A stretch of 64,000 nt of DNA from an uncultured Gammaproteobacteria bacterium. GTDB taxonomy: Bacteria; Patescibacteriota; Patescibacteriia; Magasanikbacterales; UBA922. Under the pieces are notes generated by a model, which was given only the letters and a program-made list of their open reading frames with translations, was not told the origin of the DNA and did no database searches. The DNA lies in contig CAZQXB010000001.1 in assembly GCA_964597575.1 (NCBI GenBank), forward strand, positions 274,111 through 338,110. Reading direction: 5' to 3'. The position numbers and the translations under genes were made by a program. Below, piece after piece: positions 17,691 through 61,200 of the stretch; position 1 is the first letter of the stretch, and the number at the start of each line of letters is the position of its first letter.

Positions 17691-17730
17691 GGCCCCGGCT
17701 ATCGCACCTTGCGAGACGCCGGGCTTTTTC
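17691..17730 (+). terminator. Terminator after the GC-rich small-ORF cluster
   Basis: cccggc...gccggg stem followed by ctttttc. Confidence 0.45.
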
Positions 17731-18077: not shown

Positions 18078-18096
18078 CAAAAGTAAAAAAGAAATT

Positions 18097-40779: not shown

Positions 40780-40919
40780 AATTTTCTCTTTCGAATGAAA
40801 GTCCTCCGGTGACCCCGGGGGCTTTTAATTCCCCCCACCCTGAAGCCTTGAAAAAAGGAGGGAGATATGATATGGTTCTTGTGTAGAAAATACCTTCTCA
40901 TTCAACGTCACTACATTCT

Positions 40920-41264: not shown

Positions 41265-41270
41265 ACATTC

Positions 41271-41849: not shown

Positions 41850-41872
41850 AGAAGACAAAGAATTATTTTCGT

Positions 41873-42670: not shown

Positions 42671-42671
42671 T

Positions 42672-43055: not shown

Positions 43056-43067
43056 TTTTGCGGGCTT

Positions 43068-43787: not shown

Positions 43788-43850
43788 AACAAAAAGGGTA
43801 GTCGTTTTTCGACATACCCGCCCTCCGAGACCCCCCTTCCAAAAGCACCT

Positions 43851-43955
43851 CTATCTGTCGAGATAGGCGTAGATCATCCATCCGATCATCCCAGCGGTAA
43901 GAAGGGTTGCGAAGTTTACTGCGAGAAATTCAGGATCTTGCCATATTGTAGACAT
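43851..43955 (-). CDS. Candidate 34-aa membrane peptide (MSTIWQDPEFLAVNFATLLTAGMIGWMIYAYLDR)
   Basis: Single TM helix; no RBS. Confidence 0.2.
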   Translation of the reverse strand: MSTIWQDPEFLAVNFATLLTAGMIGWMIYAYLDR

Positions 43956-44110
43956 TCTTTTTTTCACGGAAAAACTTCTCCTTATTTGCCTTATTTTAGC
44001 AAAAAATGTAAATATTTTTTCTGTTTGGAGGTAGGTATTGTACGCCTCGGTGGGGTTCAAGTCAATCGACATACCTCTTCGTATTGCGAAGAGGAGGATC
44101 TCGTGATAGG

Positions 44111-44134
44111 ATGAAAAAGCCATTTTTGAATTGA
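44111..44134 (+). promoter_or_regulatory. 7-codon uORF (MKKPFLN) with strong SD, terminating 2 nt before the asnS ATG
   Basis: gaagaggagg RBS then ATG. asnS itself has no SD. Confidence 0.35.
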
Positions 44135-44136
44135 TT

Positions 44137-45432: not shown

Positions 45433-45440
45433 GATACTGT

Positions 45441-46439
45441 ATGGCAAAACGCGGAAAAGGAGCCTCACAATCACAGGGAATCCCTGAACTTTTTATTGAA
45501 CGACTGAAAGAGATGGTCGGTGATTCTGTTTTTTCACGCATTAAAAGTACGTTTGCTGAGCGCCCCACCACGTTTCGTGTGAATACGCTCAAAACTACGA
45601 AAGCCGAAGTCAAAGAAGTATTATTTTCTCAGGGCTTTAAAATGAAGGATGTTTCCTGGATGCCTGATGCGTTTATTTTGCAAAACAAAACGAAGCGTGA
45701 ATTAACCGACACTGATTTGTATAAGCAGGGAAAAATTTATATCCAAAGCTTAGCGAGCATGGTTCCGCCGATTATTCTCCAACCAAAACCCGGTGAAAAA
45801 GTTCTCGATCTCACGGCAGCTCCAGGAAGCAAAACGTCACAGATGGCCGCGATGATGCAGGGAAAAGGAGAGCTTGTGGCGAATGATGTGAACAAAGTGC
45901 GCTTTTTCAAACTCAAACACAACATGGAAATTTTAGGAGTTACCGATGAGCGCCCTGATTGGACGTTTAAGCTCCGTATGGAACATGGAGCAGATCTTGT
46001 TCGTGAATACCCGAATTATTTCGATAAAATTTTGGTTGATGCTCCTTGCAGTGCCGAAGCCCGTTTCGTCGAAGGGGAGCGAGAAACCTATGGATATTGG
46101 AAAGAAGCGAAAATAAAAGAAATGGCCTATAAGCAGCGCCAACTTCTTTTGTCGGTGTGGAGCGCGCTTAAACCCGGAGGGCTTTTAGTCTATTCCACCT
46201 GTACGTTTGCGCCTGAAGAAAATGAGGCTCAAGTTTCCCGTTTATTAGAGCGTTTTCTTGATGCGGAAATTGAGTCTGTGTGTGTTGATGGGTTAACGGC
46301 CATACCAATTCTTAAAGCATGGAAAGAAAAATCATTTCACGAAGGGGTCAAAAAAACATTACGTATTCTTCCGACTAATGAAATTGAGGGATTTTATATC
46401 GCACTCATTCGCAAAAAAATAAACCCGACTAACACCTAG
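45441..46439 (+). CDS. RsmB/NSUN-family RNA m5C methyltransferase
   Basis: DLTAAPGSKTSQMAA SAM-binding motif and DKILVDAPCSAEA catalytic motifs. Confidence 0.8.
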   Translation: MAKRGKGASQSQGIPELFIERLKEMVGDSVFSRIKSTFAERPTTFRVNTLKTTKAEVKEVLFSQGFKMKDVSWMPDAFILQNKTKRELTDTDLYKQGKIYIQSLASMVPPIILQPKPGEKVLDLTAAPGSKTSQMAAMMQGKGELVANDVNKVRFFKLKHNMEILGVTDERPDWTFKLRMEHGADLVREYPNYFDKILVDAPCSAEARFVEGERETYGYWKEAKIKEMAYKQRQLLLSVWSALKPGGLLVYSTCTFAPEENEAQVSRLLERFLDAEIESVCVDGLTAIPILKAWKEKSFHEGVKKTLRILPTNEIEGFYIALIRKKINPTNT

Positions 46440-46642
46440 CGTAGGTCGGGCTCTTCTTCCTTTTGGTTTACTCCTTTCTTTTTCGCCCGCCATCCTCCCC
46501 AGGCGGTTTTTAGGCGTGGTACCCATACTTCATGGGTGAATACAGCTATGGCCACGGCCAGAATCATCATGAGCATGGCTCGATCACCAGTCGTGTTGAA
46601 GAGAAGCGTGTCGAGAAGATACTCTCCTGGCTCCTGATACAT
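46436..46642 (-). CDS. Small membrane protein; possibly leaderless (ATG directly after TATATAT)
   Basis: 68-aa ORF with one TM helix. Confidence 0.3.
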   Translation of the reverse strand: MYQEPGEYLLDTLLFNTTGDRAMLMMILAVAIAVFTHEVWVPRLKTAWGGWRAKKKGVNQKEEEPDLR

Positions 46643-46848
46643 ATATATACCCTAATTGATCGGGTATTTTTTGTCAAAATGAAAAGGGCCACCGCGTCGC
46701 AGCCCTCTTGGAAGAGAAAAACGACGCGGTGGTGGGGCAGTGCTCGTGATTCAACGAGTGTTAGAAGAGGAAAGGGTAGAGACATTTGGGTCTATGCCCT
46801 CTGTCTACCTTCATCCTGTCAATGAGCACGTTATTGTTTACTCCTTTT

Positions 46849-46866
46849 GTCCAAAATTTTGGACAG
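46849..46866. promoter_or_regulatory. 18-bp perfect palindrome TGTCCAAAATTTTGGACA (candidate operator)
   Basis: Perfect inverted repeat lying between two minus-strand terminators. Confidence 0.4.
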
Positions 46867-46959
46867 GAAAGAGCATATAAAAAAACACCGCTTGTTAAGC
46901 GGGTAGGGGGGGGGCGTAGATCCCTCCGAAGAAGTGGTTCAGAAGAATCTACGCTGTTC

Positions 46960-47553
46960 TTAACTCCACGAATGGGTATTTTTTGCGGTCGTTAGGAGTA
47001 GTGCGTGGAGGTCCATCATGTGATTTTCGTGGTCTCCGGCAAGCTCGCTACACATTCGGCTTACCTTCTGACCTTGGTGGTCGAACTTTTGGATCTCACG
47101 AATCACATAGTCAAGCATGAAGACCATGTGGCTGGGGTCTGATCTCCAAATAAGGCCACGGAGATCCAAGTACATCGCCTCGTACTCGGCCCTGGCTCGC
47201 TCAAGCTCTATACTCCGTGGTGGCGGAGGAGCTGCGGAGACCACTACCACCCTCGTTACTCTCGTTTCGACTTTAGGCGGCTCTTCCTTCGGAGGTGGGG
47301 GCAATTTCTCCGGAGGAGGCACTGGGAGTGTGCTACTCTGCTGTCGTACCCTGTGACCCCAGGTGTAGAGGAGTACGGAGACGAAGAGGATGATGAGTAG
47401 TTCGAGAATTCGCGGATCCGCCGTCTTTTCTTCTGTGATGAAATGAACCATGAAAAGGGTGGTCGCACACGCTGCCAGGGAGACGGCAAAAGCCGTGCTA
47501 TTGTTCCTGAGATGCCGCACAACCCAGGGATCAGAGTGTCGCTTTGTTTTCAT
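46960..47553 (-). CDS. Membrane protein with Pro-rich linker; high-GC codon usage
   Basis: RBS gaaggagg 7 nt upstream of ATG 47553. One TM helix, PPPEKLPPPPKEEPP linker, helical C-terminal domain. Confidence 0.5.
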   Translation of the reverse strand: MKTKRHSDPWVVRHLRNNSTAFAVSLAACATTLFMVHFITEEKTADPRILELLIILFVSVLLYTWGHRVRQQSSTLPVPPPEKLPPPPKEEPPKVETRVTRVVVVSAAPPPPRSIELERARAEYEAMYLDLRGLIWRSDPSHMVFMLDYVIREIQKFDHQGQKVSRMCSELAGDHENHMMDLHALLLTTAKNTHSWS

Positions 47554-47641
47554 CGACTTTCCTCCTTCTAAGATTAAGAGTAAGCCTGTCAAAAAGGCTT
47601 GTCAAATGGGTATATTTTCCCTCTTGTCAGAAGGAGAAATT

Positions 47642-49447
47642 ATGCTATACTACGAACACTATTTTGTTATCTGTATGTACCGAACACACACCTGCGGAGC
47701 CTTGCGCAAAGAAGAGGTAGGTCAGTCAGTAACGATATCGGGCTGGGTTCATAAACGTCGCGATTTAGGCGGTCTTATTTTTGTTGATTTGCGTGATCGG
47801 TACGGCATGACCCAGGTAGTATTTCACCCTGAAACAGTGAAAGATTTTACTATTGCTGAATCGCTCAAATACGAATACGTTATCCGAATTGAAGGGGAGG
47901 TTATGCTCCGCGATGAGAAAGCCATTAACCGAGATTTGGTTACGGGAGAAATTGAAGTGCGTGCAAAAACAGTTGAAATTTTGAGCCGTGCTAAAGCCAT
48001 GCCATTTGAAATTTTTGATGCTGGCAAAGGCGAAGAAGATGAAGAGATTCGTTTGAAGTATCGTTTCCTTGAACTTCGCCGTGAGAAATTAAAAAATAAT
48101 ATCTTGTTTCGCGCGAAAATGATTAAACATATTCGCGAGTACATGGAGTCACGCAATTTTATTGATATTGCGACACCTATTTTAACGGTGTCTTCGCCAG
48201 AAGGTGCACGTGATTTTTTGGTGCCGAGCCGTATTCACCCAGGAAAATTTTATGCGCTTCCACAAGCGCCTCAGCAGTATAAACAGTTGCTCATGGTAGC
48301 TGGGTTTGATCGGTATTATCAAATTGCGCCATGTATGCGCGATGAAGACCCGCGGGCAGATCGCTCCCCGGGAGAGTTTTATCAGCTCGACTGTGAAACA
48401 TCATTTCTGACAAGAGAAGAATTTTTCCAACTCATGGAGCCGTTGTTTGTTGAGCTTACTGAAAAAGTGGCTGGCAAGAAAGTTCAAGAGAAGCCATTTC
48501 CTCGGATTAAATACCGTGAAGTCATGGAGACGTACGGAGTAGATCGCCCTGATTTACGTTTCGACATGAAAATTCAGAATGTCTCTGAGTGGGCCAAGAA
48601 GACATCGTTTAGTGTCTTTTCATCGGCTGAATTTGTACGAGCGCTCGTTGTGCCGGGCGGTGCTGCTTTATCCCGAAAAGACATTGATGGGGAATATAGC
48701 GATGTTGCCAGACGTGCGAAAGCAAAAGGTTTGGCGTGGCTCAAATTTCAAAATAATGCGTTTGAAGGAACTATTGCTAAGTTTTTTACCTCTGAAGAAT
48801 TTGCTGCGCTTCAAGCCGCCGTACAACCAGAAGAGGGAAGTATTGTCTTTTTTGTGGCAGACGCTTGGGAGGTATCGTGTAAAGCGCTTGGTGCAGTGCG
48901 TGCCTTTGCAGGAGAAAAAATGGGTTTGGCTGACCCGAACGTAATCGCTTGGGCTTGGGTCGTAGATTTTCCATTTTTTGAGTGGAACGAAGATGATAAG
49001 AAGGTAGACTTCGCGCACAACCCATTTTCCATGCCACAAGGTGGGCTCGAAGCACTGAATACCAAAGACCCGCTCACAATCGATGCCGACCAGTACGACA
49101 TTATTGCAAATGGGCTGGAATTATCGAGTGGAGCTGTGCGTAATAAAGATCCAGAAGTGATGTATCGTGCCTTTGAAATCGCGGGCTACGATCGTTCTGT
49201 GGTCGATAAAAAGTTTGGCCACATGATCGATGCGTTTGAATATGGCGCACCACCTCACTGCGGGTTTGCCCCGGGAATTGATCGCCTCGTTATGCTTCTC
49301 ACGGGCGAGAAAAATATTCGCGCAGTTGTTCCATTTCCAAAAAATCAACGAGCAGAAGAACCAATGATGGGAAGCCCAAGTGAAGTCAGTGATAAACAAT
49401 TAAAAGACTTACATATTCGTGTTGCTGCTGACGGTCCACGTACGTAA
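47642..49447 (+). CDS. aspS: Aspartyl-tRNA synthetase (bacterial type)
   Basis: GWVHKRRDLGGLIFVDLRDRYG and class II motifs. Start at the ATG with AAGGAG 5 nt upstream; alternative start at 47675. Confidence 0.9.
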   Translation: MLYYEHYFVICMYRTHTCGALRKEEVGQSVTISGWVHKRRDLGGLIFVDLRDRYGMTQVVFHPETVKDFTIAESLKYEYVIRIEGEVMLRDEKAINRDLVTGEIEVRAKTVEILSRAKAMPFEIFDAGKGEEDEEIRLKYRFLELRREKLKNNILFRAKMIKHIREYMESRNFIDIATPILTVSSPEGARDFLVPSRIHPGKFYALPQAPQQYKQLLMVAGFDRYYQIAPCMRDEDPRADRSPGEFYQLDCETSFLTREEFFQLMEPLFVELTEKVAGKKVQEKPFPRIKYREVMETYGVDRPDLRFDMKIQNVSEWAKKTSFSVFSSAEFVRALVVPGGAALSRKDIDGEYSDVARRAKAKGLAWLKFQNNAFEGTIAKFFTSEEFAALQAAVQPEEGSIVFFVADAWEVSCKALGAVRAFAGEKMGLADPNVIAWAWVVDFPFFEWNEDDKKVDFAHNPFSMPQGGLEALNTKDPLTIDADQYDIIANGLELSSGAVRNKDPEVMYRAFEIAGYDRSVVDKKFGHMIDAFEYGAPPHCGFAPGIDRLVMLLTGEKNIRAVVPFPKNQRAEEPMMGSPSEVSDKQLKDLHIRVAADGPRT

Positions 49448-49451
49448 CCCT

Positions 49452-50144
49452 ATGACCATTGCCTTCCAGCTTGGGCAATTCAGTGGACCGCTTGATCTTC
49501 TTCTCTCGCTTCTCTCTGAGGAGAGGTTGTCGATTAATGATGTTTCGCTTTCAGCTGTCACGGAACAGTACTTGCGCTACTTAGATTCTTTGGAGGAACG
49601 AAATGCCGATGAGTTGGCCGACTTCTTGGTGGTCGCTGCAAAATTACTGTTGCTAAAATCTAAAACCCTTTTACCTAATTTTCTTCCAGAAGAAGAGGAT
49701 GGAGGAAGTTTAGAAGCACAACTCAAGTTGTATAAACAGTTTGTTGATGCAAGTAAAAAAGTGCACAAGCTGTGGTTGAGCCCGTGGCGTAGCATTGGCC
49801 GAGAGCGCACGGTAAAGAAACCAGACGGGTTTGTGCCTCCAAGTAATGTAACCGCCGAGCGTTTGGTGATGGCAATGAAAAGTATCGTGAATCGGTTAGC
49901 CCCACCGAAACCTCTTCCGCAGACCCACATCGATAAATCTATTTCACTCAAAGAAAAGATTGATGCGATTCGTCGATTGGTTTCTTCAGGTCAGCGCCTG
50001 CTTTTCCATGAAATTTTAGAAAGTTCTCAAAACAAAACAGAAATTATTGTCAGCTTTCTCGCGATTCTCGAACTCATGAAACAGCAACAGATATTTTTAG
50101 AGCAAAGTGATTCTTTTAGTGATATCATGATCCTACCTGTATGA
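49452..50144 (+). CDS. scpA: Segregation and condensation protein A
   Basis: Typical ScpA N-terminus. Confidence 0.8.
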   Translation: MTIAFQLGQFSGPLDLLLSLLSEERLSINDVSLSAVTEQYLRYLDSLEERNADELADFLVVAAKLLLLKSKTLLPNFLPEEEDGGSLEAQLKLYKQFVDASKKVHKLWLSPWRSIGRERTVKKPDGFVPPSNVTAERLVMAMKSIVNRLAPPKPLPQTHIDKSISLKEKIDAIRRLVSSGQRLLFHEILESSQNKTEIIVSFLAILELMKQQQIFLEQSDSFSDIMILPV

Positions 50145-50692
50145 GTCTCATTCCCCAAATCGAAGCCATTTTATTTGTGGCGGGCGGTCCGGTCAGTGTT
50201 AAGGCCCTCGCAAAAGCACTCGGGAAGCAAGAACCGGATATTGCCGAAGCACTTGATAACGCTGCCAAAAAACACGAGACCACCGATTCCGGACTCGCAA
50301 TTTTGAGAACCGAGGACGGTGCACAGATGGTATCCCGGGCTTCTTTTGTGGAAATTGTTGATCAGTTTTCTCGTGATGAGGTTGCTGGTGAGTTAACGAA
50401 GGCGCAGCTTGAAACCCTCACGGTTATTGCGTATCGCGGGCCAATTACTCGCCCTGAACTTGAAGAGGTGCGTGGAGTAAACTGTGCTCTTATTTTGCGG
50501 AATTTGCTCATGCGTGGGCTTATTGAAGAAGGGGAAGATCCCGCGAAACTCGGTCGCGTGTACAGTATTTCAGCCGAAGCACTCCGTCATTTGGGAATTG
50601 TCAGCGTTCAAGATTTACCAGAATACGAAACGCTTCATGCTCATCCGCATATTGAACGCGTTCTTACTCAAGATACTTCCGATCCGTCATAG
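50141..50692 (+). CDS. scpB: Segregation and condensation protein B
   Basis: IEAILFVAGGPVS; winged-helix repeats. Confidence 0.8.
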   Translation: MSLIPQIEAILFVAGGPVSVKALAKALGKQEPDIAEALDNAAKKHETTDSGLAILRTEDGAQMVSRASFVEIVDQFSRDEVAGELTKAQLETLTVIAYRGPITRPELEEVRGVNCALILRNLLMRGLIEEGEDPAKLGRVYSISAEALRHLGIVSVQDLPEYETLHAHPHIERVLTQDTSDPS

Positions 50693-50695
50693 CTT

Positions 50696-51727
50696 ATGAA
50701 TACTCCGGCCCTGGAGGGCAGAGTGCAGAAAAGAAAAAAAGGAGTTGTTGGAGCAAGCCTCCTTTTTTTGGCTATACTTGCCCTTGGTCTTGGATTCTTT
50801 TTTGGTCTTGATGTGGTAAAAGCGCCTACAAAAACAGTAAACAAAGCGCCTCAGATTGATTTTTCTTTATCTGATGTTGCATCTCTTGCTGCGGCGCTTT
50901 TTGCTGAACGCAGTACGCCGGCAGTTGTGGTTGAGCCAGCAGTTCTTCCGCCACTTCGGGTAAGTGAAGGGGACTTGCCGACAACCAGTGCTCACGCCTT
51001 TCTCGTGCGTGATGTTTCTTCGGGCGCGTTCCTTCTGAATGGTGATGCCTATACACCATTTGCGATTGCAAGCATTACAAAGCTTATGAGTGCGCTCGTC
51101 CTTCTTGATACCAAAATTGATTGGGAGGCTACAGCCATTGTACCCGCAGATGAAGTGTCAGATAGCCATGTGCTTTCGGGGGAAGTGCAAACAAAAGCAT
51201 GGCTTTGGCAGGCAGGCCTAGTTGGATCATCAAATAAAGCCATTCTTGCGCTGGTTGATAGTAGTGGTTTAACGCGCGAAGCCTTTGTGGTTCGCATGAA
51301 CGAAAAGGCCCGTGTGCTCGGAATGTCTCGTGCTGTGTTTACCGATCCAACCGGGCTTGAGGTGGGGAATCAGGCGAGTGTGGCTGATGTTTCGACGTTA
51401 CTCGATGCTGCCATGAAACAAGGAGAAATTCGCTCAGCCCTTATGACCCCGTCGTACGATATTGTTCGGGGTGGAAAAAAAGTGTCAACGGTTTGGAGTA
51501 CGAACTGGCTTATGCTTGGCTGGGTGCCGCATACATTTGCAAGTGTGATTGGTGGAAAAACAGGATACATTCCAGAATCTGGATATAACGTATCGCTTCG
51601 TATTAAAAATGAAGATGATCGTGAAATTGATGTGGTGGTGCTTGGATCAAGCTCGACCGAATCACGATTTACTGATGCGAAAAGTTTGGCCGAGTGGGTT
51701 TTTGCACATTACGAGTGGAAGGAATAG
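50696..51727 (+). CDS. D-alanyl-D-alanine carboxypeptidase (S11, PBP5-like)
   Basis: Signal/TM region; SITK (SxxK), SSN (SxN) and KTG motifs. Confidence 0.85.
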   Translation: MNTPALEGRVQKRKKGVVGASLLFLAILALGLGFFFGLDVVKAPTKTVNKAPQIDFSLSDVASLAAALFAERSTPAVVVEPAVLPPLRVSEGDLPTTSAHAFLVRDVSSGAFLLNGDAYTPFAIASITKLMSALVLLDTKIDWEATAIVPADEVSDSHVLSGEVQTKAWLWQAGLVGSSNKAILALVDSSGLTREAFVVRMNEKARVLGMSRAVFTDPTGLEVGNQASVADVSTLLDAAMKQGEIRSALMTPSYDIVRGGKKVSTVWSTNWLMLGWVPHTFASVIGGKTGYIPESGYNVSLRIKNEDDREIDVVVLGSSSTESRFTDAKSLAEWVFAHYEWKE

Positions 51728-51740
51728 GAGATATAAAACA

Positions 51741-51770
51741 AAAACAGCCAATTGATGCGGCTGTTTTTGT
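51741..51770 (+). terminator. Terminator after the carboxypeptidase gene
   Basis: aaacagcc-aattgatgc-ggctgttt then ttgt. Confidence 0.6.
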
Positions 51771-51853
51771 AAACTCTCTTTGAAAACAAACTCATGTTTA
51801 TTTTCACAGTGAAATTTTGGGCCAGAGCATTCGCGAAGGAATGTCTGGCCCGA
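51771..51853. repeat. 83-bp direct repeat copy 1 (3' of the island lipoprotein gene), containing palindrome TTTCACAGTGAAA and hairpin gggccaga/tctggccc
   Basis: Near-identical (about 96%) to 54399-54481. Confidence 0.85.
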
Positions 51854-51884
51854 TACCTACTGCAGGATTGCGAGTAGGGTGTGG

Positions 51885-53051
51885 CTACGGAGCCACGACG
51901 TTCAGGTAGCGGATGATCTGTCCCTCCATCCCGATTTCACTCGGTTGAAGCGGCTGACCGTTGCTCCAGAATCTGGTCCCTGTGAGCTGCGCAGCGTAGA
52001 TGGTGTCGGTGTGCCCTTGTCCCGGCTCGAGCCGGGCGATGTCCACCACGACGGTGAGCTGAATGGTTTCACCTCTCTCGACGGTCTGTACCTGTCCTTC
52101 TTTCGCGAGGGACATGATGCCATCCTGGTCGCTTCTCAGCATGCCGGTCCGCCGAACAAGCGGCGTCCTTTCAGACGTGAGCCCTTCGAGACCTCCGACA
52201 TGGAAACGACCATTCGTGATCACCGGATTGTCGCCCTGCCAGAGCGTCATGTTGCCGTTGCCGATCTGCCAGATGAAGTACTCGATGCCGCCGAACTGCA
52301 GCAGATCGCAGGCGGTGATGTTGAGCACCGCTACGAGCTCGTTCGTGACGCCCGTCGGTCCGAAGTAGTCGGGGAAACCCTGGTCTTGCGTGATCCAGAC
52401 TTTCCGGCCCGTCACCGAGCACGGATCGCTCGCCGGACGAACCACACGATATGTGTCGTGCGTGGCGTCGTTCCGGATGAGCCGCGCTGCCTTCCCATCC
52501 TCCGTGCGGGTTGCGCGGAGCATGTCTCTCATGAGCCGGACCGAGTAGATACCATCCTCCTCGGCCGTTATGGGAATCCGACCGTACAGGGTGAGTCGGA
52601 GCGTGCGCCTTTCGGGCACGTTCGTTACATCCTGCGCGAGAGGTACCGAGATGATCCCGCCGATCATCTCGAAGAGCTTCTCGTAGCTTCCGTCGTGCTC
52701 CACCTTGCGGAACACTTCGGTCATGTGCGGGATCTCGAGGAAGATCGGGCTGACGTCGACCGTATTGCAGGCCGTGATCTCGAGGGTGATGAGGCGGGCC
52801 TCCCACCCGCGGTTGTACGTCCGCAGATCGTCGGTGGTGACCACGTTGATGTCGTAGTCGCCGTCCGGACACTTCTGGTCGAGTCGCTCCTCGAGCGTGA
52901 GCTCGGGATCCTCCCCCGACGGCTCCCCCTGGGGGAACGTGACGTCCGGCAGATGGATGTTGACGGTCGGCGCCGGGGCCATGGGCTCCTCACCGCACGC
53001 GGCGATGATGCTGGCGAGCGCGATGCTCGCCAGCAGGTTGAACTTCTTCAT
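51885..53051 (-). CDS. Lipoprotein (388 aa), high-GC codon usage
   Basis: RBS gggaggaag. Signal peptide MKKFNLLASIALASIIAAC with lipobox. GC3-rich codons. Confidence 0.7.
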   Translation of the reverse strand: MKKFNLLASIALASIIAACGEEPMAPAPTVNIHLPDVTFPQGEPSGEDPELTLEERLDQKCPDGDYDINVVTTDDLRTYNRGWEARLITLEITACNTVDVSPIFLEIPHMTEVFRKVEHDGSYEKLFEMIGGIISVPLAQDVTNVPERRTLRLTLYGRIPITAEEDGIYSVRLMRDMLRATRTEDGKAARLIRNDATHDTYRVVRPASDPCSVTGRKVWITQDQGFPDYFGPTGVTNELVAVLNITACDLLQFGGIEYFIWQIGNGNMTLWQGDNPVITNGRFHVGGLEGLTSERTPLVRRTGMLRSDQDGIMSLAKEGQVQTVERGETIQLTVVVDIARLEPGQGHTDTIYAAQLTGTRFWSNGQPLQPSEIGMEGQIIRYLNVVAP

Positions 53052-53246
53052 GGTAACTTCCTCCCTGGAAGTATGGTGAGAATGGACGCGTGATTGCGCC
53101 AGTCTATATTTGGGTTTTTGATTCCCCTTCGAGAGAAGATACATCAGTGTCCCATATAGGGCCACGACGTACCCTCCTTCGAAGGAGAATATTGTAAAGA
53201 AATTGTTGTTCACTTGTAGAGACAGATCTCTATTTATGAACAAGAG

Positions 53247-53317
53247 AGTATATCATAAAATGGTGGTTTTGTCAAGAGGTAAAAGGTTATATTTCTCTTA
53301 TTTTAGGTAAATTATGA
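53247..53317 (-). promoter_or_regulatory. Island promoter 1 (TTGACA-17-TATACT on the minus strand) plus conserved upstream element
   Basis: -35 at 53270-53275, -10 at 53247-53252. Element tcttattttaggtaaattatga lies 21 bp beyond the -35. Confidence 0.6.
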
Positions 53318-53343
53318 CGTCTATGTTTGCCTTTAAAAAGTAA

Positions 53344-53381
53344 AACTTCCTCGTGTCGACCCGATGGGACAGGAGGAAGTA
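53344..53381 (-). terminator. Terminator for the 250-aa island gene
   Basis: cttcctc...gaggaag stem followed (minus strand) by ttttacttttt. Confidence 0.5.
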
Positions 53382-53438
53382 GGTGGGCGTAGTGCCCGGT
53401 AGGTAGGACCCCACATCACTCCGGAGAGTGGAAAGAGG

Positions 53439-54191
53439 TTATGACTTGGTTCCAGAGAGAGTATCGAAGAATTTGCCTAGGCCCAAGTAGACCCGGTACT
53501 TCTTCTTATCCGGCTCCCTCGGACCGTAGAACAGACCCTCGTCGTTGAGGTACGGCTCTCCGTACATTACTCCCATGACCGGTCTGTAGTATGGGCGCCA
53601 ACACTCGGGATCGCGCTCGCCTGCTTGTTGGGCGAAGAAGAAGATCCGGTTCGGCATCTTGCGCGTCCAATGGACTATCCCGTACGAGTCCTTCAGGTCA
53701 GGACGCTCTTGTTCCGGTCTCACTTCGAAACTCATCGAGGTGGAGGCTTCGAAGAGCTCTCGGAAGTCCGCGTGGGATGAGTTGAACGGGACATCCATTC
53801 CGGGGTTCAAAAGCCCCTCGGTGAACAGTCCTTGGTCCATTCGGAAACCGTGCATCCCACCTTCATCTTCTGGGACGTACCAGTTCCTTCTCATCGTGAG
53901 CTTAAGTTCTTTCGTGTGAAAGGCCTTTTGAGAGGCCTCGAGAAAGCTACCGCATTGAGCGCGGAACTCGTCGGGGGAGATCGGGATCGTGAACACCCCC
54001 ATCCTCTTTTTTCTTTCGAGGATGGCGAAGAAGTGGCTAGGTGAATCGCTGGTCAAATGTCCAGCATCCTCCTCGCTCTTCTCGGTCATCTCCCATCCCC
54101 AGAGCCTCTGCCTTTTCTTCGCCACCACGACCTGCGCGACCCGCTCTTCCTTAGAGAAGAAGTTCTTTGCGTCTTCATTGTTATTGGCCAT
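53439..54191 (-). CDS. Hypothetical cytoplasmic protein (250 aa), high-GC codon usage
   Basis: RBS ggagagggaag; no signal peptide; no recognisable motif. Confidence 0.55.
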   Translation of the reverse strand: MANNNEDAKNFFSKEERVAQVVVAKKRQRLWGWEMTEKSEEDAGHLTSDSPSHFFAILERKKRMGVFTIPISPDEFRAQCGSFLEASQKAFHTKELKLTMRRNWYVPEDEGGMHGFRMDQGLFTEGLLNPGMDVPFNSSHADFRELFEASTSMSFEVRPEQERPDLKDSYGIVHWTRKMPNRIFFFAQQAGERDPECWRPYYRPVMGVMYGEPYLNDEGLFYGPREPDKKKYRVYLGLGKFFDTLSGTKS

Positions 54192-54252
54192 CTGATCTTC
54201 CCTCTCCTTTTTGGGGTTGTTATGCTACCTTTGCTTTAAAAAGGTAACAAAA

Positions 54253-54326
54253 AATTATACTCCTTTTTTTTGGTTTTGTCAAGAGGTAAAAGGTTATATT
54301 TCTCTTATTTTAGATAAATTATATGA
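54253..54326 (-). promoter_or_regulatory. Island promoter 2 (TTGACA-17-TATAAT) plus conserved upstream element
   Basis: -35 at 54276-54281, -10 at 54253-54258. Element 54303-54326 lies 22 bp from the -35. 40 bp identical to promoter 1. Confidence 0.6.
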
Positions 54327-54398
54327 TTCATACGGGTCATAAAAATGAGAGCAAACAAAAACCACCAACCGGTGAAAAGGTTGGTGGTTAATATGAGC

Positions 54399-54481
54399 AA
54401 ACTCTCTTTGAAAACAAACTCATGTTTATTTTCACAGTGAAATTTGGGGCCAGAGCATTCGCGAACGAATGTCTGGCCCGA
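54399..54481. repeat. 83-bp direct repeat copy 2
   Basis: See copy 1. Confidence 0.85.
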
Positions 54482-54534
54482 ACCTGCCGGGGGAGTCTCG
54501 GTAGACTCTACCTAGGTAGGCGGGCAGGGTGCCC

Positions 54535-55128
54535 TTACTGATTCGACATGATGGTGTAGCTTCTCGTCGTGTTGCTGAACTCGACGATCGCCGGAGACCC
54601 ATCTGCGCGGAGCGCGTCGAATTCGACGAGCCTGACCTCTCGGGTAACGCCCGGTCGGATCCACGGATTGGTGTCCACGACGAACGTGAGCAGGTGGGGA
54701 CCATCTTCGACGAGAACGTCATCGTCATCTTCGTTGAGCGTCTCGCTCCACGAGATCACGAGGTTGTTCGACCCGTCATCGACGCGCTCGACGTCGCCGA
54801 GGTTCCTTCCATCGAAGGAGACCGCGACGATGTTCGAGATCGAGTCGTTGAAGAGGGTGCCGAGGAGAACCTCGGTGTACTCCACCGAAACGTCCTTGGA
54901 AGCCGGGTTCCACCGGAGCTCGAGGGTGACGGCGAAGGGTTCACCTGCCTCGACTTCGAGCCCATCGTTGATGGGGAACATGGTCACCGCCATGTCCGGG
55001 TCCGGTTGCGGTTCGCCCAGGTTCTTGATGTCGACCTCGCGGTAATCGAGGGGCGACAGATCCGTCCTCCCACATGCCGTGGAGAAGAGCGTGGGGAGCA
55101 AAGCGTAGCAGAGCAGTCGGTTGAACAT
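54535..55128 (-). CDS. Lipoprotein (197 aa), high-GC codon usage
   Basis: RBS aaggaggaag; signal peptide ending LFSTAC; acidic mature part. Confidence 0.65.
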   Translation of the reverse strand: MFNRLLCYALLPTLFSTACGRTDLSPLDYREVDIKNLGEPQPDPDMAVTMFPINDGLEVEAGEPFAVTLELRWNPASKDVSVEYTEVLLGTLFNDSISNIVAVSFDGRNLGDVERVDDGSNNLVISWSETLNEDDDDVLVEDGPHLLTFVVDTNPWIRPGVTREVRLVEFDALRADGSPAIVEFSNTTRSYTIMSNQ

Positions 55129-55334
55129 GGCAACTTCCTCCTTGGAAGTGTGTTAGAGTGGCGCTCCATGCGCCAATCTCTCTATCAAGGTTTGTATTTA
55201 TTCCCCTTCGAGTAAAGATACATCAGACGCTCCACCTGGGAACGCGACGTACCTGTATTCGAAGAGGAATGTGTCTATATAAAGAGCAAAAATGCTTCAC
55301 AGGTGGCTTTTTAGGCAAACACTGTGAACGGCAT

Positions 55335-55405
55335 AGTATAGCACAAAAACACTGTTTTGTCAATATGTGATTGGAAAAATTTGTCTTATTTTAGCTAAAT
55401 ATGAT
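55335..55405 (-). promoter_or_regulatory. Island promoter 3 (TTGACA-17-TATACT) plus conserved upstream element
   Basis: -35 at 55358-55363, -10 at 55335-55340. Element tcttattttagctaaatatga lies 22 bp from the -35. Confidence 0.6.
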
Positions 55406-55588
55406 GTGTATAAGTTTACAAAGTCTGCGTGAAAAATACCCATTGACTTTTTTCAAAGAATATGGTACAAATATATGTCGCTTTTTTGTATAAAAAATTT
55501 GAATAATGCGACATCAGTAACGTCACCAAAACTCAACTTGCATGGTGCAGGAAGAGGGATGGTGCAACAACTGAGGGAGACAAAAGAA

Positions 55589-56080
55589 ATGACGACCGAC
55601 AACTTGCTCAACAGCTTCAAGAGCGCGGGCATCGCGTTCGCGTATTCGGGATCTGCGATGTATCCGCAGATCCCCTCGGTCAAGGACGTGCTCTATGTCC
55701 TCAGGATCGAGGAGAAGCCGGACGTGTACCAGAGTGCCCTCGGGAACCACTACGACTATGTGAGCAACGTCGCTCTGGTCGTGTCCGCGGTCGCGTTCAA
55801 CGTGCTCGACGACATGCTCGATACGATGACGCGGGAGATGGTCGTGGCGCTCGCGATCATCGATCTGTGCCCGGACGAGGCCAGGTGTCTCTCCAATCCG
55901 CGGTACGCCGACGTGTTCCGGATCGTGAACCAGGATCCGTCGCTCGAGCCCGCGCTCGCGCCGGATGCGACGAGGGAGATACTCCAGGGGTTCTGCACCT
56001 GCCCCGCACACGGGAAGGCGGGTGCGGCGCAGGGCGGCGGCAGCGTCGCGGACCAGCACCGCGGCTGGAGCGCGAGCTGA
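55589..56080 (+). CDS. Hypothetical protein (about 163 aa; alternative start 55559), high-GC, divergent from lipoprotein gene 3
   Basis: RBS gagggag; GC3-rich codons; strong terminator downstream. The antisense ORF is Arg-rich junk. Confidence 0.55.
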   Translation: MTTDNLLNSFKSAGIAFAYSGSAMYPQIPSVKDVLYVLRIEEKPDVYQSALGNHYDYVSNVALVVSAVAFNVLDDMLDTMTREMVVALAIIDLCPDEARCLSNPRYADVFRIVNQDPSLEPALAPDATREILQGFCTCPAHGKAGAAQGGGSVADQHRGWSAS

Positions 56081-56106
56081 ACATGGCTCGGCGCTGAGTA
56101 TACATG

Positions 56107-56160
56107 TCCGGCAGGAAAATCGAACTTCGGTTCGACGAGTACTGCCGGGCTTTTTTAATT
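56107..56160 (+). terminator. Rho-independent terminator ending the island
   Basis: ccggcag...ctgccgg stem then gcttttttaatttgttttttt. Confidence 0.7.
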
Positions 56161-56358
56161 TGTTTTTTTGTTGGGAGGGGGATCTCACTCGTCGCTCATT
56201 TCATTCGCTCCTCTTGGGAAAGGGCTTCCGCCCCTTCCCAACCATCCCCCAGCAAAAGTGAAAACCTACCGGTTTTCAAGCTTTCCCCAGTTCGACCCAC
56301 CTCCTGCCCTGTCAAACAAATTATAAAACCAACCTGGTTAGGTCGGTTTTATTATTTG

Positions 56359-56442
56359 TGGGCGAGGAGGGGGTCGAACCCTCAAGACCTTGCGATCGCG
56401 GGATTTTGAGTCCCGTGCGTCTGCCAGTTCCGCCACTCGCCC
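56359..56442 (-). tRNA. tRNA-Leu (anticodon CAA), long variable arm
   Basis: Reverse complement GGGCGAGTGGCGGAACTGGCAGACGCACGGGACTCAAAATCCCG...GGTTCGACCCCCTCCTCGCCCA. Confidence 0.85.
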
Positions 56443-56526
56443 GTATTTGTACGAGCATAATACTCATTTTTGTCTTTTTTGTCAATTTTCGGTATACTTG
56501 TCTGAACAGTTCGGCTTCCTTGTTTT

Positions 56527-57327
56527 ATGACCAAAATTATTGCTGTCGTTAATCAAAAAGGTGGAGTGGGAAAAACCACGACCGCCATGAATTTGGCTGC
56601 GGCACTCGCTGAGGAAGGAAAGTTTGTGCTCCTTGTTGATATGGATCCCCAAGGGAATGCTTCAAGTGGGCTCGGGGTAAATAAAAGCACGACCGAACAC
56701 GGGGTATACGAGGCACTTGCAAAACAAAAGCGGCTACATGATGTCGTACAGAATACTGGCCATGAGGGTCTGCGCGTTGCCCCTGCCACGTCAAATCTCG
56801 CTGGAGCGAATGTTGAATTAATCGACGTAGAACGCCGTGAATTTCAGCTGTCAGACCTTCTCGAAGAGGTGCGTCATGCGTACGATTACATTGTTATCGA
56901 TTGCCCACCCTCGCTTGGTCTCCTTACCATTAATAGTTTGGTTGCCGCGGACGAGCTTCTTATCCCGGTTCAAGCCGAATACTATGCGCTTGAGGGGTTA
57001 GGTCAACTTTTGGAAACCATCGGGCTTATTAAAGAACATATTAAAGCTGATTTGAAGGTGCTTGGTGCGGTCATTACCATGTTTGATAAACGGAACAAGC
57101 TGTCGACCGACATCATGAATGAATTATACAAATATTTTCCCAACAATATTTTCCAAAGTGTTATTCCTCGCACGGTCCGTTTGGCCGAGGCGCCAAGCTT
57201 TGGAAAATCGATTTTTCATTACGAACCAGGAGGTAAGGGGGCGAAAGCGTACGAACGCTTAGTCAAAGAAATTCTTTTACGCCATGATGAAGAACTGGCC
57301 TTGGCCGCTTCTCAGGCACAATCATAA
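56527..57327 (+). CDS. parA: Chromosome partitioning ATPase ParA/Soj
   Basis: KGGVGKTTTA deviant Walker A. Confidence 0.9.
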   Translation: MTKIIAVVNQKGGVGKTTTAMNLAAALAEEGKFVLLVDMDPQGNASSGLGVNKSTTEHGVYEALAKQKRLHDVVQNTGHEGLRVAPATSNLAGANVELIDVERREFQLSDLLEEVRHAYDYIVIDCPPSLGLLTINSLVAADELLIPVQAEYYALEGLGQLLETIGLIKEHIKADLKVLGAVITMFDKRNKLSTDIMNELYKYFPNNIFQSVIPRTVRLAEAPSFGKSIFHYEPGGKGAKAYERLVKEILLRHDEELALAASQAQS

Positions 57328-57333
57328 TTTTCT

Positions 57334-58248
57334 ATGGCTTTGGGCAAAGGCTTACAATCACTTATTGGCGCACCAGGGAAATCTTCCACATCCACATCCA
57401 CTTCCACGATGAATCCTCTTTCTGCTTCTTCAAAAAAAACAGAATCTGGAGTATCAGAAAAGAAAGAGCATCGAGGGAATGAAGTGTGGCAAATTCCGCT
57501 TGGTGAAATCGTTCCGAATCGCGAACAACCACGCAAACACTTTGCGAGAGAAGACCTTGATAATTTAGTTGCTTCCATTAAAGAGCATGGGCTACTGCAG
57601 CCGATTACGGTTTCAGAAAAAGCCGGTGGCGGGTATGAGCTTATTGCAGGTGAACGCCGGTTTCGCGCTTCGCAAATTGTTGGTCTTCCTACCATTCCAG
57701 CACTCGTTCGAAAAACAAAAGATGATGCTGAGCGACTAGAGTTAGCACTTATTGAAAATATTCAACGACAGGATTTAAACCCAGTTGAAGAAGCGTTTGC
57801 ATACGACCGGTTGATTCATGAATTTGGTTTGACGCAAGAGGAAGTGTCTAAAAAGGTGGGCAAGAGCCGCTCTGCTGTTGCAAACGCAGTGCGCTTACTT
57901 GATTTACCAGAAGACATGCAAAAGGCGCTCATGGAGGGAACACTTTCAGCCGGAAAGGCGCGCGCGATTTTGAGTTTAAGTAGCGCCGAAGCCCAGCGAG
58001 AAATGTTTCAGAGTATGATGGGGGAAAGCATGACCGTGCGTGAAGCTGAGGCGCGTGTGGCAGCAAAAGGGAGTGAATCGCGCAAAGGATCGGTCCGACG
58101 TGATCCGAATGTCGTCGCTCAGGAAAAACTGATTGAAGAGCGATTAGGAACAAAGGTGCACATTACCAAAAAAGGGGAGAAGGGAACGATTGTGATTGAC
58201 TACTACTCTTTGGAGGAATTGAATCGGCTTCTAAGTGAATTAACCTAA
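57334..58248 (+). CDS. parB: Chromosome partitioning protein ParB/Spo0J (S/T-rich N-terminal extension)
   Basis: GERRFRAS ParB box and HTH region. Confidence 0.9.
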   Translation: MALGKGLQSLIGAPGKSSTSTSTSTMNPLSASSKKTESGVSEKKEHRGNEVWQIPLGEIVPNREQPRKHFAREDLDNLVASIKEHGLLQPITVSEKAGGGYELIAGERRFRASQIVGLPTIPALVRKTKDDAERLELALIENIQRQDLNPVEEAFAYDRLIHEFGLTQEEVSKKVGKSRSAVANAVRLLDLPEDMQKALMEGTLSAGKARAILSLSSAEAQREMFQSMMGESMTVREAEARVAAKGSESRKGSVRRDPNVVAQEKLIEERLGTKVHITKKGEKGTIVIDYYSLEELNRLLSELT

Positions 58249-58266
58249 TTTTTTAAAGGAGGGGGT

Positions 58267-61200
58267 ATGAGGTATTATTTTATCTTCGCTTTTCTTTTCT
58301 TTAGTTTTTTTGTACCCCACAAAATTTTAGCGGCTACCTCGGTTACAGGGGATATTCAATCGGACACAACTTGGGTTTTGGCTGGGAGTCCATATATTGT
58401 AGAGAATGAAACGTATGTGCTTCCTGGCGCAACACTACGGATTGAGCCTGGGGTGGTGGTAAAATTACGACGACCATTTAGTGCGCTTTTTGTAACAGGC
58501 TCAATGATTGCTGAAGGAACATCATCTTCGCCAATTTTTTTTACATCATACCGAGATGATAGTGTTGGTGGTGATACCAACGGTGACGGAGCACGTTCTG
58601 TTCCAGCACCTCGCGATTGGGATAAAGTTTTTGTAGGATCAGGTGGACGCGTATCTTTAGCCTACGCAACTATTCGTTATGCTGGGCAATTTGCACCAAG
58701 CGCAGCACTCTACAATAATGGCGGTACAGTGTCTTCAACAGGAAGCACTTTTTCCCAAAGTATTGTTGGGGTGTATGCGGAAGGGGGAACTACTACTATA
58801 CAACGGAGTACATTTTCTGATCAATCAGTTGGATATTATTACGTGCGTGGGGTAACCCACATATCACTCAATCGTTTTTTGAATTTAAGTCGATATGCTT
58901 TCGACAATTCGTTCGGTCGTCCGATTGACGCGCGGTATAACTACTGGGGAAGTGCCTCAGGTCCATTTCATGCAACGGAACATCCTACGGGTACTGGCGG
59001 CGTGATTCATGGCGCTCGTGTACAATTTACGCCTTGGATTGACTTTGATCCTGTGCTCGAATCAGCACGAGGAGTATGTTTCTCGAACTGTCGGAATCCG
59101 GTCATTTTTATTCCGGGGATTATGGGCACTGAGTTTGTGCGACGAGAGGTGAATGGAGATGAGGAGGTGGTGTGGTTAGACATAACAAAAGTTGCGGTAA
59201 GTGATCAGGATTATTTCATGAGGTACCTTAGTTTAGATTTAGTCGGAAATCCTCTTTTTGATAATGTGTTTGCTACGAGTGTTATGCGTTTTAAAAACAT
59301 TCTTCGTACAACAATTTTTAACTATACAGAAAGTTTAATAGGGAATTTAATTGCACAGGGATATCAAGAGAATACAAATCTTTTCTTCTTCCCTTATGAC
59401 TGGCGTTTGAGTAATGCCCATACGGCCCAACTGTTGGCAGCTCGAATAGATGAGGTTCTCGCGCAAACTGGTGCTACTAAAGTAGATATCATTGCCCATA
59501 GTATGGGAGGGCTTGTGGTTAAAGAATATATCCGTACTCACGAGACTGAACCAAAGATAGATAAACTCCTATTTCTAGGTACCCCTCACTTAGGTTCCCC
59601 TGACGCTATTAAAAATCTCCTTTTTGGGGGAGACTTAGGTCTTAAATATAAAGATCACAGCTTTCTCGATCGTACTCGGGTAAAAGAACTTGCGCGAAAT
59701 ATGCGAAGTATTTACGAACTTCTCCCTACAGAGCAGTATTTACAATCGTACGGCTCAGTCGTGAGTGATTTAGAACAAAGAAAAGCGTACGACCATGAAG
59801 AAACAAAATCTTTTTTTGGTGAGCAACATTTAAACATGTTTTTGGTTTGGGGTGCGGAGTCTTTTCACCAGAATTTAGATAACTTTGTTCTCCCAGACAG
59901 TATTGAAAGTTATAGTATCCAAGGGTGTGGAATTCCCACTATTCGACGACTGGTCAAACAGTCACCAAAATTTGGAGAAGTTGAATGGCTTATGCATGTT
60001 GGAAATGGAGACAGTACCGTGCCGCTATCCAGTGCCAGTTTTGTCTCTGTCCCAGAGAGTCATAAAATTACCATTCCAGGTCTGGGCCACTCTGAGATGC
60101 CAAGTGATGATTTGATTCAACCTCTTATTATTAGTTTGTTATCCGGAAATACATCAACTATTCAAGCATCAGTACAGGCATCAAATCACCCAGATCAATG
60201 CGGTCTTCATGGTTCTCTCGTGTCAGTGCATAGCCCTGTAGCGATTTCAGCAACAGATAGTATGGGTCGGTATGTCGGAGCCTCAGTTTCTGGAGGTGTA
60301 GATTTGGGCATACCAGGATCAATGTATGAAGAGCTGGATGGAAATAAGTTTATCTTTTTACCCACAAATGAGAGTGGGGAACCATACATAATTACACTCG
60401 ATGGTATGGCCACAGGAACATTTAATGCTAGGGTTACACGTATTGTTGAAGACATTCCAGAAGAAACAAGTATTTTTATTGATATTCCAGTAACAAGTGA
60501 ATCAGTGGGATCGTTCACACTTCCCTCAGGTGAAGAAGAGTTTTCACCCGTATTAGTGTACGATGAAGAGGGGGGTGGAACCAGTACAAATATCATCCCT
60601 GACGCAACCACAAACGAAGAAGATGAGGGAGATTTTACCCCTCCTACTACAACAATAAGTATTTCTGGCACGGTTGGGGATCATGGTTGGTATAAAAGTG
60701 TGGTGACTCTTGTACCAAGCTCAGTCGATGATGAGAGTGGGGTACTACGAACTATGTACTCAGTTAATGGTGGGTCTACATGGCATGTGTACGCCACACC
60801 CCTTTTAGTGACTGGTGACGGTACTCATACTCTGCAGTATTTTAGTATTGATGCTATAGGTAATAGAGAGGATCCTCGAGAAATCAGATTCTCTATCGAT
60901 CAAACCCCACCAGAAGCAGAGTTTTATTTTGACTCTACAATTCAAGATATGAGAGTACAGGGTACTGATGTGTTAAGCGCTACAACAGTCTCAACTACAC
61001 CGACGACTTATGTAGTACGAGACCAGGCTGGTAACACACTAGAATTGGTGTTTAAAGAGGTTAATAGAAGAATACTCAAGCGAGCTTCTCTCGATCGGCT
61101 TGTCTATAATGGTCAGGTAATACTTCCAAATGCACGTCTGACATCGTTTGTCTGGCTAACAAACACAAGAAATGAGATACTATCCCTGCAGCAAGCTCTG

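Follow-up and report, generated by a model that had tools for sequence, protein, structure and literature searches.

A GC3-rich islet of orphan genes beside tRNA-Leu in a Magasanikbacterales genome and the non-coding shell around its lipoprotein genes

The DNA treated here is a stretch of 64,000 nucleotides (the window) from contig CAZQXB010000001.1 of the assembly GCA_964597575.1 (positions 274,111 to 338,110, forward strand), which is deposited as an uncultured Gammaproteobacteria bacterium and placed by GTDB in the Patescibacteriota (Patescibacteriia; Magasanikbacterales; UBA922). Its nearest reference loci come from metagenome-assembled genomes of Candidatus Magasanikbacteria, with identities of 61%, 49%, and 48% for the dacA gene product; the source record is an NCBI contig of 913,817 bp. 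A 4.6-kb interval from dacA to the gene for tRNA-Leu(CAA), referred to as the islet, holds four genes (A to D) with a very high G+C content at third codon positions (GC3). Two of them, A and C, code for lipoproteins with unrelated mature parts, which are embedded in homologous leader and 3' sequences, and the same 5' arrangement precedes a further unrelated lipoprotein gene in a metagenome contig. We regard the islet as a lineage-variable accessory region whose core belongs to a family of genes for surface lipoproteins, with a conserved expression shell and not the protein as its defining feature, and whose high GC3 is maintained. This reading is given a probability of about 0.55, somewhat better than even.

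Anatomy of the islet and recurrence of the shell

The genes of the islet and its two anchors are arranged as follows:

50696-51727, plus strand: dacA, coding for a PBP5-like protein; left anchor
51885-53051, minus strand: gene A, 388-aa orphan lipoprotein with the lipobox IAAC, signal peptide MKKFNLLASIALASIIAAC followed by G, GC3 0.82
53439-54191, minus strand: gene B, 250-aa protein without signal peptide, member of a sparse uncharacterised family, GC3 0.71
54535-55128, minus strand: gene C, 197-aa orphan lipoprotein, signal peptide ending in LLPTLFSTAC followed by G, GC3 0.81
55589-56080, plus strand: gene D, 163-aa orphan, divergent from C, GC3 0.89, with an ATG start codon behind GAGGGAG
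56358-56442, minus strand: tRNA-Leu(CAA), right-hand conserved anchor, with its own promoter (TTGACA-17-TATTAT) at 56457-56485

The open reading frame (ORF) of gene D opens already at 55475, but that extension has a GC content of 39%. The signal peptides of the lipoproteins, with a positively charged n-region and a hydrophobic h-region, were read from the translations, not obtained from a dedicated predictor. A lipobox according to [LVI][ASTVI][GAS]C or to the wider PROSITE rule PS51257 is present in the product of A, in that of gene E from the metagenome contig L052, and in a lipoprotein of the more distant relative L007 (ending in LMTVVAC), and the signal peptide of C agrees with the wider rule only. 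Similarity between the proteins A and C is confined to the signal peptide, and the mature parts of A, C, E, and the product of gene F from the closest reference genome (L005) cannot be aligned with each other by BLASTP. Tandem repeats are absent from A and C. None of the proteins A to D matched a family of Pfam, NCBIfam, PHROGs, or PADLOC, and E gave a marginal PHROG match limited to its signal peptide. In a word-seeded search of 5.8 billion proteins, A and B matched only themselves and C matched nothing, and sequence searches of the PDB returned nothing for A, E, or the alignment of B. No viral relatives of A to D were detected, and the leader pattern is also absent from the viral contigs searched; plasmid relatives were found neither for D nor for E.

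A full HMMER scan with B retrieved six remote relatives of uncharacterised function (E = 4e-6 to 7e-4), and an AlphaFold model of B based on the resulting seven-sequence alignment reached a predicted local distance difference test score (pLDDT) of 61 with weak fold matches. Relatives of B are located at L053 136-762, L054 6001-6669, in L055, and at L056 5001-5717, in settings as unrelated as the vicinity of an mraZ-dcw cluster, a group of cytochrome oxidase genes, and the neighbourhood of thiamine genes. Since these contexts are unrelated and the GC3 values of the relatives are near those of their own hosts, the B family appears to be sparse and mobile, without a conserved neighbourhood.

The signals for transcription and translation around these genes are listed below:

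51738-51770, both strands: bidirectional intrinsic terminator (13-bp stem and T run), ending dacA on the plus strand and forming the last hairpin of the 3' module of A on the minus strand
51771-51853, minus strand: 83-nt repeat, copy 1, constituting the 3' untranslated region and terminator module of A, with a GC-rich 13-bp hairpin at 51819-51851 followed by an AU-rich hairpin
53052-53240, minus strand: leader of A, about 189 nt, with a 5'-terminal stem-loop, a hairpin of 70 nt and 30 bp at 53121-53190, and a Shine-Dalgarno (SD) hairpin at 53056-53072
53247-53315, minus strand: promoter of A, with -10 TATACT at 53247-53252, -35 TTGACA at 53270-53275, a 17-nt spacer, and an AT-rich upstream module
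53335-53379, minus strand: terminator of B, a CTTCCTC...GAGGAAG hairpin and U run, read from the sequence
54254-54322, minus strand: promoter of B, TTGACA-17-TATAAT (12/12) with the common upstream module, followed by a leader of about 55 nt
54360-54389, minus strand: terminator hairpin after repeat copy 2, a diverged counterpart of 51738-51770 with compensatory changes
54399-54481, minus strand: 83-nt repeat, copy 2, constituting the 3' module of C
55129-55328, minus strand: leader of C, about 200 nt, of the same architecture, with the long hairpin at 55200-55270 and the SD hairpin at 55133-55149
55335-55400, minus strand: promoter of C, TTGACA-17-TATACT with a diverged upstream module
55443-55471, plus strand: candidate promoter of D, of a weak extended -10 type (TTGACT, 17 nt, TGgTACAAA), absent from the promoter scan and read from the sequence
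56108-56157, plus strand: terminator of D, CCGGCAG...CTGCCGG and T run, read from the sequence

The upstream modules of the promoters of A and B are 98% identical over 52 nt, and the copy in front of C is more diverged. The two copies of the 83-nt repeat are likewise 98% identical, their hairpin core is matched in none of 100 shuffled sequences, and beyond the core the similarity continues at lower identity into the second terminator hairpin. A GC-rich hairpin with a downstream U run, as typical for Rho-independent termination, is present behind each of the genes A to D, and the four 3' modules, those of A and C and those of the genes E and F, all fold as stacks of hairpins (z = -6.8 to -8.8; A -8.8, C -6.8). 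An alignment of the A and C leaders over 193 nt gives 65% identity, and both fold far better than shuffled sequences (z = -7.7 for A and -5.3 for C). This applies particularly to the main hairpin, with -43.3 kcal/mol for A (z = -7.8) and -37.7 kcal/mol for C (z = -7.7); including the leader of E, the range over the three leaders is -36 to -43 kcal/mol with z-scores of about -7 to -7.8. The 6-bp SD hairpin (ACUUCC...GGAAGU) carries the Shine-Dalgarno sequence GGAGG.

The conservation of the main helix follows its structure: over the three sequences, 96.6% of the cells pair, as compared to about 45-53% with slid partners, and four pairs have changed on both sides, while two G-U pairs are invariant. 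With a covariance model, the sense strand reaches 136-163 bits (162.7 bits for the leader of C) and the antisense strand 32-42 bits. Because of the invariant G-U pairs and the advantage of the sense strand, the main hairpin is regarded as an RNA element rather than a DNA palindrome. Searches of Rfam at the gathering score and at E <= 5 over the region from 51.7 to 56.5 kb returned only the tRNA, and neither the leader nor the 3' module matched a family.

A search with the hairpin pattern led to a single metagenome contig, L052 (JACCDG010029880.1), in which a promoter TTGACAAAACCGCTATTTTATGCTATACT, a leader, and an SD hairpin precede gene E. This gene codes for a 458-aa lipoprotein (GC3 0.77, signal peptide MQKFIASMVLAFVATFVAAC followed by G) which is unrelated to A and C, and is located in AT-leaning surroundings different from those of the islet. 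The three leaders are pairwise 65-69% identical, with that of C being nearer to the one of L052 (69%) than to the one of its neighbour A (65%), and the first approx. 35 nt of the coding sequences of A and E can be aligned as DNA. The E protein contains three Cys-rich tandem repeats of about 22 aa (YCG-DT-WNG--CVS-VT-IPG; residues ~236-305, region 11040-11200 of the contig) without a Pfam match. In L005, the GC-rich gene F (GC3 0.84) follows directly after dacA on the minus strand, and its 3' module is 93% identical with that of L052, both being alignable with the hairpin of the window. In L007, a lipoprotein gene at 1820-2362 on the minus strand (GC3 0.68 in a backbone of 0.30) has a promoter with TTGACA and, in its leader, a 21-bp hairpin. 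The window itself contains, just upstream of aspS, a 197-aa orphan ORF at 46960-47553 on the minus strand (GC3 0.60, possible lipobox SLAAC), and the lipoprotein gene of L007 occupies the equivalent place, which suggests that GC-enriched lipoprotein genes recur at a second site, next to aspS. No copies of the modules beyond the three shells were found in the 64-kb window and 176 kb of related loci, and literature searches by topic and by run accession returned nothing on this phenomenon in the candidate phyla radiation (CPR).

In these cases, the shell starts with a near-consensus sigma-70 promoter and its AT-rich upstream module and proceeds into a leader of about 190-210 nt, containing a 5'-terminal stem-loop, the 70-nt hairpin of about 30 bp, and the 6-bp hairpin with the GGAGG sequence. 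It extends into the coding sequence over the first dozen or so codons of the lipoprotein signal peptide and resumes after the stop codon with three to four stacked hairpins finishing in intrinsic terminators. Much of this anatomy had been recognised in an earlier note on the same DNA, and the following of its observations are borne out: the four GC3-rich genes against an AT-leaning backbone (0.71-0.89 versus 0.41 +/- 0.06), the presence of two lipoproteins (A and C), a 250-aa protein without signal peptide (B) and a divergent gene (D), a terminator consisting of a hairpin and a U or T run for each gene, and the homologous leaders of about 190 nt and common 83-nt repeat of the two lipoprotein genes. 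Its statement that every gene has a textbook promoter applies to A, B, and C (TTGACA-17-TATACT or TATAAT) and not to D with its weak candidate, and the description as surface genes fits only A and C, i.e., two of the four. With respect to more copies of the repeat and leader, the leader was recovered in L052 and a homologous 3' module in L005, and none elsewhere in the 64 kb.

Three of the genes are overlapped over their full length by ORFs on the opposite strand:

51879-53093, plus strand: antisense ORF over A
54529-55215, plus strand: antisense ORF over C
55523-56188, minus strand: antisense ORF over D

These are the expected by-product of a codon-aligned frame in GC3-rich genes that avoid the codons TTA, CTA, and TCA. 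They were rejected as true genes in view of this codon-aligned frame, of GC contents at first codon positions (GC1) exceeding GC3, and of the presence of promoter, SD sequence, and lipobox on the minus strand. Automatic callers have chosen the antisense frame of 228 aa over C in an independent assembly (Logan L004), and the 197-aa protein is missing from a collection of 15 billion proteins; genes of this kind are therefore systematically missed or assigned to the wrong strand and are under-represented in protein databases.

Codon composition and the case for import

The GC3 of the backbone is 40.6 +/- 5.7% (45 ORFs), and genes A to D deviate from it with z-scores of 5.2-8.5, whereas their GC1 and second-position values (GC2) stay within about one standard deviation of the backbone. 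The spacers between the genes have GC contents of 39-43%, with the exception of 49% between D and the tRNA gene, and the composition shifts at the start codon and again 60-90 nt past the stop codon, where the GC-rich terminator hairpins are located. Already codons 2-15 end with G or C almost throughout (A 14/14, E 13/14, C 12/14), including signal-peptide codons which are conserved between genomes. The genes share a codon dialect dominated by CTC, ATC, TTC, AAC, and AAG. In all seven GC3-rich genes considered (A to D, E, F, and the lipoprotein gene of L007), GC1 lies 7-13 points under the value expected from GC3, as calculated with regression coefficients that reproduce the backbone values. 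Since the excess is confined to the ORFs, includes the signal-peptide codons, leaves GC1 and GC2 backbone-like, and has been kept despite leaders diverged to 65-69% identity, we interpret it as a trait that is maintained in the ORFs, perhaps caused by selection on mRNA or translation or else by a biased process, and not as a leftover of donor composition. GC-biased gene conversion was set aside as a cause, the unconstrained parts of the transcribed leaders not being GC-enriched. A contrasting case in the window is a gene of the GCS2 family (carboxylate-amine ligase) at 12159-12926 on the plus strand with a GC3 of 0.56, whose GC1 and GC2 are above expectation, opposite to the genes of the islet; it has the appearance of an ordinary import whose composition has been partly ameliorated.

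The setting of the islet has to be considered next to its composition. The order dacA ... tRNA-Leu (minus strand) - parA - parB is kept in the relatives L006, L007, and L010, and the gap between dacA and tRNA-Leu ranges from about 0.1 kb (L010) over 2.3 kb (L007) to 5.1 kb (L006), its gene content differing from one relative to the next. The interval of L006 includes two atypical genes with GC3 of 0.22-0.24 versus 0.40, and that of L007 one with 0.53 versus 0.30. The islet is situated on the 3' side of tRNA-Leu, and 50 nt beyond the tRNA (56290-56309), a stretch of 20 nt repeats part of the tRNA 3' end in inverted orientation (arms 75% complementary); it may be an old rearrangement scar or due to chance. 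A second GC-rich islet (16880-17730, 55-61% GC) is found directly upstream of tRNA-Pro(GGG) at 18004-18078; its ORFs are all small (48-132 aa, GC3 0.60-0.71), a terminator lies near 17705-17730, and Rfam gave no match.

These features bring up the alternative of a recent horizontal import, in which ORFs from one or more GC-rich donors (approx. 60-68% GC) would have entered a tRNA-adjacent hot spot and been captured behind resident promoters, with their GC3 not yet ameliorated. The outlying GC3 of A to D, the patchy B family with its host-typical GC3 elsewhere, and the inverted tRNA fragment would all agree with such an event, and the variable interval with its compositionally atypical genes in L006 and L007, the adjacency to the tRNA, and the second GC-rich islet by tRNA-Pro make it a serious rival. 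As a whole, it is still judged rather unlikely. The 5.8 billion proteins contain no donor or close homologue of A, B, or C, viral relatives of A to D or plasmid relatives of D and E did not turn up either, and the islet is accompanied neither by an integrase nor by a direct att repeat. Moreover, GC1 and GC2 resemble the backbone and not a donor, and the composition switches at the start codon and soon after the stop codon, with flanks made of a conserved native shell that is also present in other contigs. An import would have to account for signal-peptide codons which are conserved between genomes and already GC3-rich, and for a GC3 of about 0.8 in every member in spite of leaders that are down to 65% identity, which would require a repeated precise replacement of ORFs.

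Several points weigh against our preferred reading of a shell-defined family with maintained GC3. The expectation for GC1 and GC2 leans on the regression coefficients used, and surface proteins have an odd amino acid composition. The ribosomal-protein genes and the gene for EF-Tu are not GC3-rich. B and D are equally GC3-rich without possessing a lipoprotein shell, and the host-typical GC3 of the relatives of B fits an import better than a family trait; B and D are passengers of the islet and plausibly true imports. The GC-rich islet by tRNA-Pro together with the atypical genes of L006 represents classic signs of horizontal transfer. Finally, the full shells found amount to three and the 3' modules to four, and the covariation statistics rest on three sequences.

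Integrity of the assembly and exchange of cassettes

The earlier note had named a chimeric assembly at 51.8 or 56.1 kb as a way in which its view could fail. In such a case, GC-rich reads of another organism would have been stitched into a CPR contig via the short repeats, and the short-read unitigs do end at the 83-nt and promoter repeats. This explanation is hardly credible. The unitigs of Logan, which represent independent assemblies of three samples, are 100% identical to the window and break at repeats only (40696-51800, 51788-53293, 53277-54300, and 54416-59157), and single ones carry GC-rich ORFs together with AT-rich backbone: the unitig L004 joins C, D, tRNA-Leu, parA, and parB, and the unitig L003 runs from the repeat through A and its leader to the promoter. 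The same architecture is seen in L052 and L005, which stem from other projects. Only the order across a common segment of 47 nt is ambiguous in the graph and relies on the original assembly.

The non-homologous ORFs between conserved flanks may also be viewed as products of an active cassette diversification, either by recombinase-driven swapping, as in integrons or the vsa and vpma systems of mycoplasmas, or by hypermutation through a diversity-generating retroelement (DGR), with the hairpins serving as recognition sites. The 98% identical patches hint at ongoing conversion, long inverted-repeat hairpins are present at both ends of the cassettes, and the direct repeats could excise the segment with A and B, in line with the ambiguity at the 47-nt common unitig. 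We consider this improbable: no integrase, recombinase, or reverse transcriptase was recognised by Pfam or NCBIfam among A to D or the flanking genes examined, no template/variable repeat pair of the DGR type exists between 51 and 57 kb, and the coding strands are not depleted of adenine. A promoter of its own for each cassette departs from the logic of integrons or vpma loci, and the hairpin, with its invariant G-U pairs and an advantage of about 100-120 bits for the sense strand, has the properties of an RNA structure, not of a DNA site. The 83-nt direct repeats bracket 2,628 bp comprising A, B, and a spacer (segment 51771-54481), which could be lost or circularised via homologous recombination; in the de Bruijn graph, this segment looks the same in place and as a separate circle, so that spanning reads are needed to distinguish the two.

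The wider interpretation of the earlier note, a system of cassettes that places foreign genes at a tRNA insertion hot-spot, has to be modified accordingly. The modular anatomy stands and is extended by L052 and L005, but it comes without any machinery in the form of an integrase, recombinase, reverse transcriptase, or attC-like site in the islet. The foreign origin is unproven, given the lack of a donor and of viral relatives of A to D and a GC excess limited to third codon positions. As to the hot-spot, the interval is indeed variable among the relatives, but there is no integrase, and the first 16-24 nt of the tRNA 3' end have no direct copy of the att type in the window at up to 25% mismatches. 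The direct adjacency of dacA and tRNA-Leu without an insert is approached in L010 with its gap of about 0.1 kb and not in L007 or L006.

Proposed function and comparison with known systems

If the shell acts as its parts suggest, each cassette would be an independent, strongly transcribed unit whose long-lived mRNA yields a surface lipoprotein that is abundant and changes fast. The ends of the mRNA would be protected by the 5' stem-loop and the 3' hairpins, the SD hairpin would tune initiation, and the long hairpin is a plausible site for RNase III or for protein binding. New members may arise by duplication, recombination or gene conversion in the shell, and a very fast divergence or replacement of the ORFs, gene conversion being indicated by the 98% identical patches beside leaders of 65% identity. 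The window codes for RNase III, of interest for a possible processing of the leader hairpin, and for one confirmed and one likely enzyme that bear on the decoding of NAC/NAU codons:

2096-2857, minus strand: RNase III (Pfam)
8232-9287, plus strand: likely QueA, an ORF judged by eye only
9856-11079, minus strand: queuine tRNA-ribosyltransferase (Pfam)

A more far-reaching proposal, which we hold only tentatively and with considerable doubt, envisages a hypervariable CPR lipoprotein family that is held together by its non-coding shell and whose ORFs are actively kept in a G/C-ending dialect from codon 2 to the stop codon, against the preference of the remaining genome for codons ending in A/T. 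Such a dialect might serve a codon-based control of expression, e.g., efficient translation under limiting wobble decoding with queuosine-dependent reading of NAU codons, or might result from biased mutation or repair that is restricted to the ORFs and linked to a rapid turnover of the proteins. In that case, a new class of cis-regulatory RNA would be represented by the conserved 30-bp hairpin of the leaders.

CPR bacteria (Patescibacteria) live attached to other cells, and the ways in which they build and vary their surfaces are largely unknown. The locus offers a searchable handle, consisting of the shell from promoter over leader to signal peptide, the covariance model, and the 3' module, on lipoproteins that are invisible to searches by protein homology. 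The change of composition exactly at the ORF boundaries also provides a clean natural case for separating foreign DNA from a maintained codon dialect. If the GC3 is maintained, the locus bears on the regulatory use of codon choice in minimal genomes; if the genes were imported, it exemplifies how incoming genes can take over native expression signals with unusual precision.

Among known systems, tRNA-linked islands with tyrosine integrases resemble the islet in the adjacency to a tRNA 3' end and in atypical composition, which is restricted to third codon positions in the islet, and differ by their integrase, direct repeat of the tRNA 3' end, and mobility genes, all of which the islet lacks. 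The cassettes of integrons are promoterless, bounded by attC sites, and adjacent to intI with attI and Pc. The islet likewise contains unrelated ORFs bounded by recurring structured elements, but its units each have their own promoter and terminator and are not associated with an integrase. Leaders that stabilise the mRNA of envelope or other highly expressed proteins are known from the 5' stem-loop of ompA, the S-layer slpA leaders, and the STAB-SD of cryIIIA. The islet resembles them in combining a strong promoter with a long structured leader that begins as a 5'-terminal stem-loop, and also in its strong SD sequence and stacks of 3' hairpins. The islet leaders have no sequence relationship to them and no Rfam family, and a stabilising function would be proposed for them by analogy.

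A further point of reference is the flexible ("replacement") or metagenomic island for cell-surface components, of which the cell-wall island of Haloquadratum walsbyi is an example (PMC4535781). The islet resembles such islands in being a fixed interval between anchors (dacA and tRNA-Leu-parAB) filled with different atypical surface-related genes in each relative. It differs in being tiny (4.6 kb), in containing orphans rather than genes of the glycosyltransferase or O-antigen type, and in having a regulatory shell that accompanies unrelated ORFs and is found at a second locus (L052) as well. In the vsp and vpma genes of mycoplasmas, the 5' untranslated region and the part coding for the signal peptide are conserved, both inside a family and across species, and the remaining parts of the genes show no significant homology (PMC2268961). 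The islet shares this inverse conservation, with leader and signal peptide kept and the mature parts unrelated, and likewise presents a cluster of lipoprotein genes in a host-associated bacterium with a reduced genome, as with vsp of M. bovis, vpma of M. agalactiae, and the vlp and vsa families. It deviates from these systems in the individual promoters of its genes, the conserved 3' module, the lack of intragenic tandem repeats in A and C, the lack of a Xer-type recombinase or inversion site among A to D and the tested neighbours, and the GC3 enrichment of the ORFs. Such an enrichment relative to the genome is not a known feature of variable lipoprotein systems in mycoplasmas. By likeness of organisation, the mycoplasma vsp/vpma families and the flexible cell-surface islands appear to be the closest analogues of the islet.

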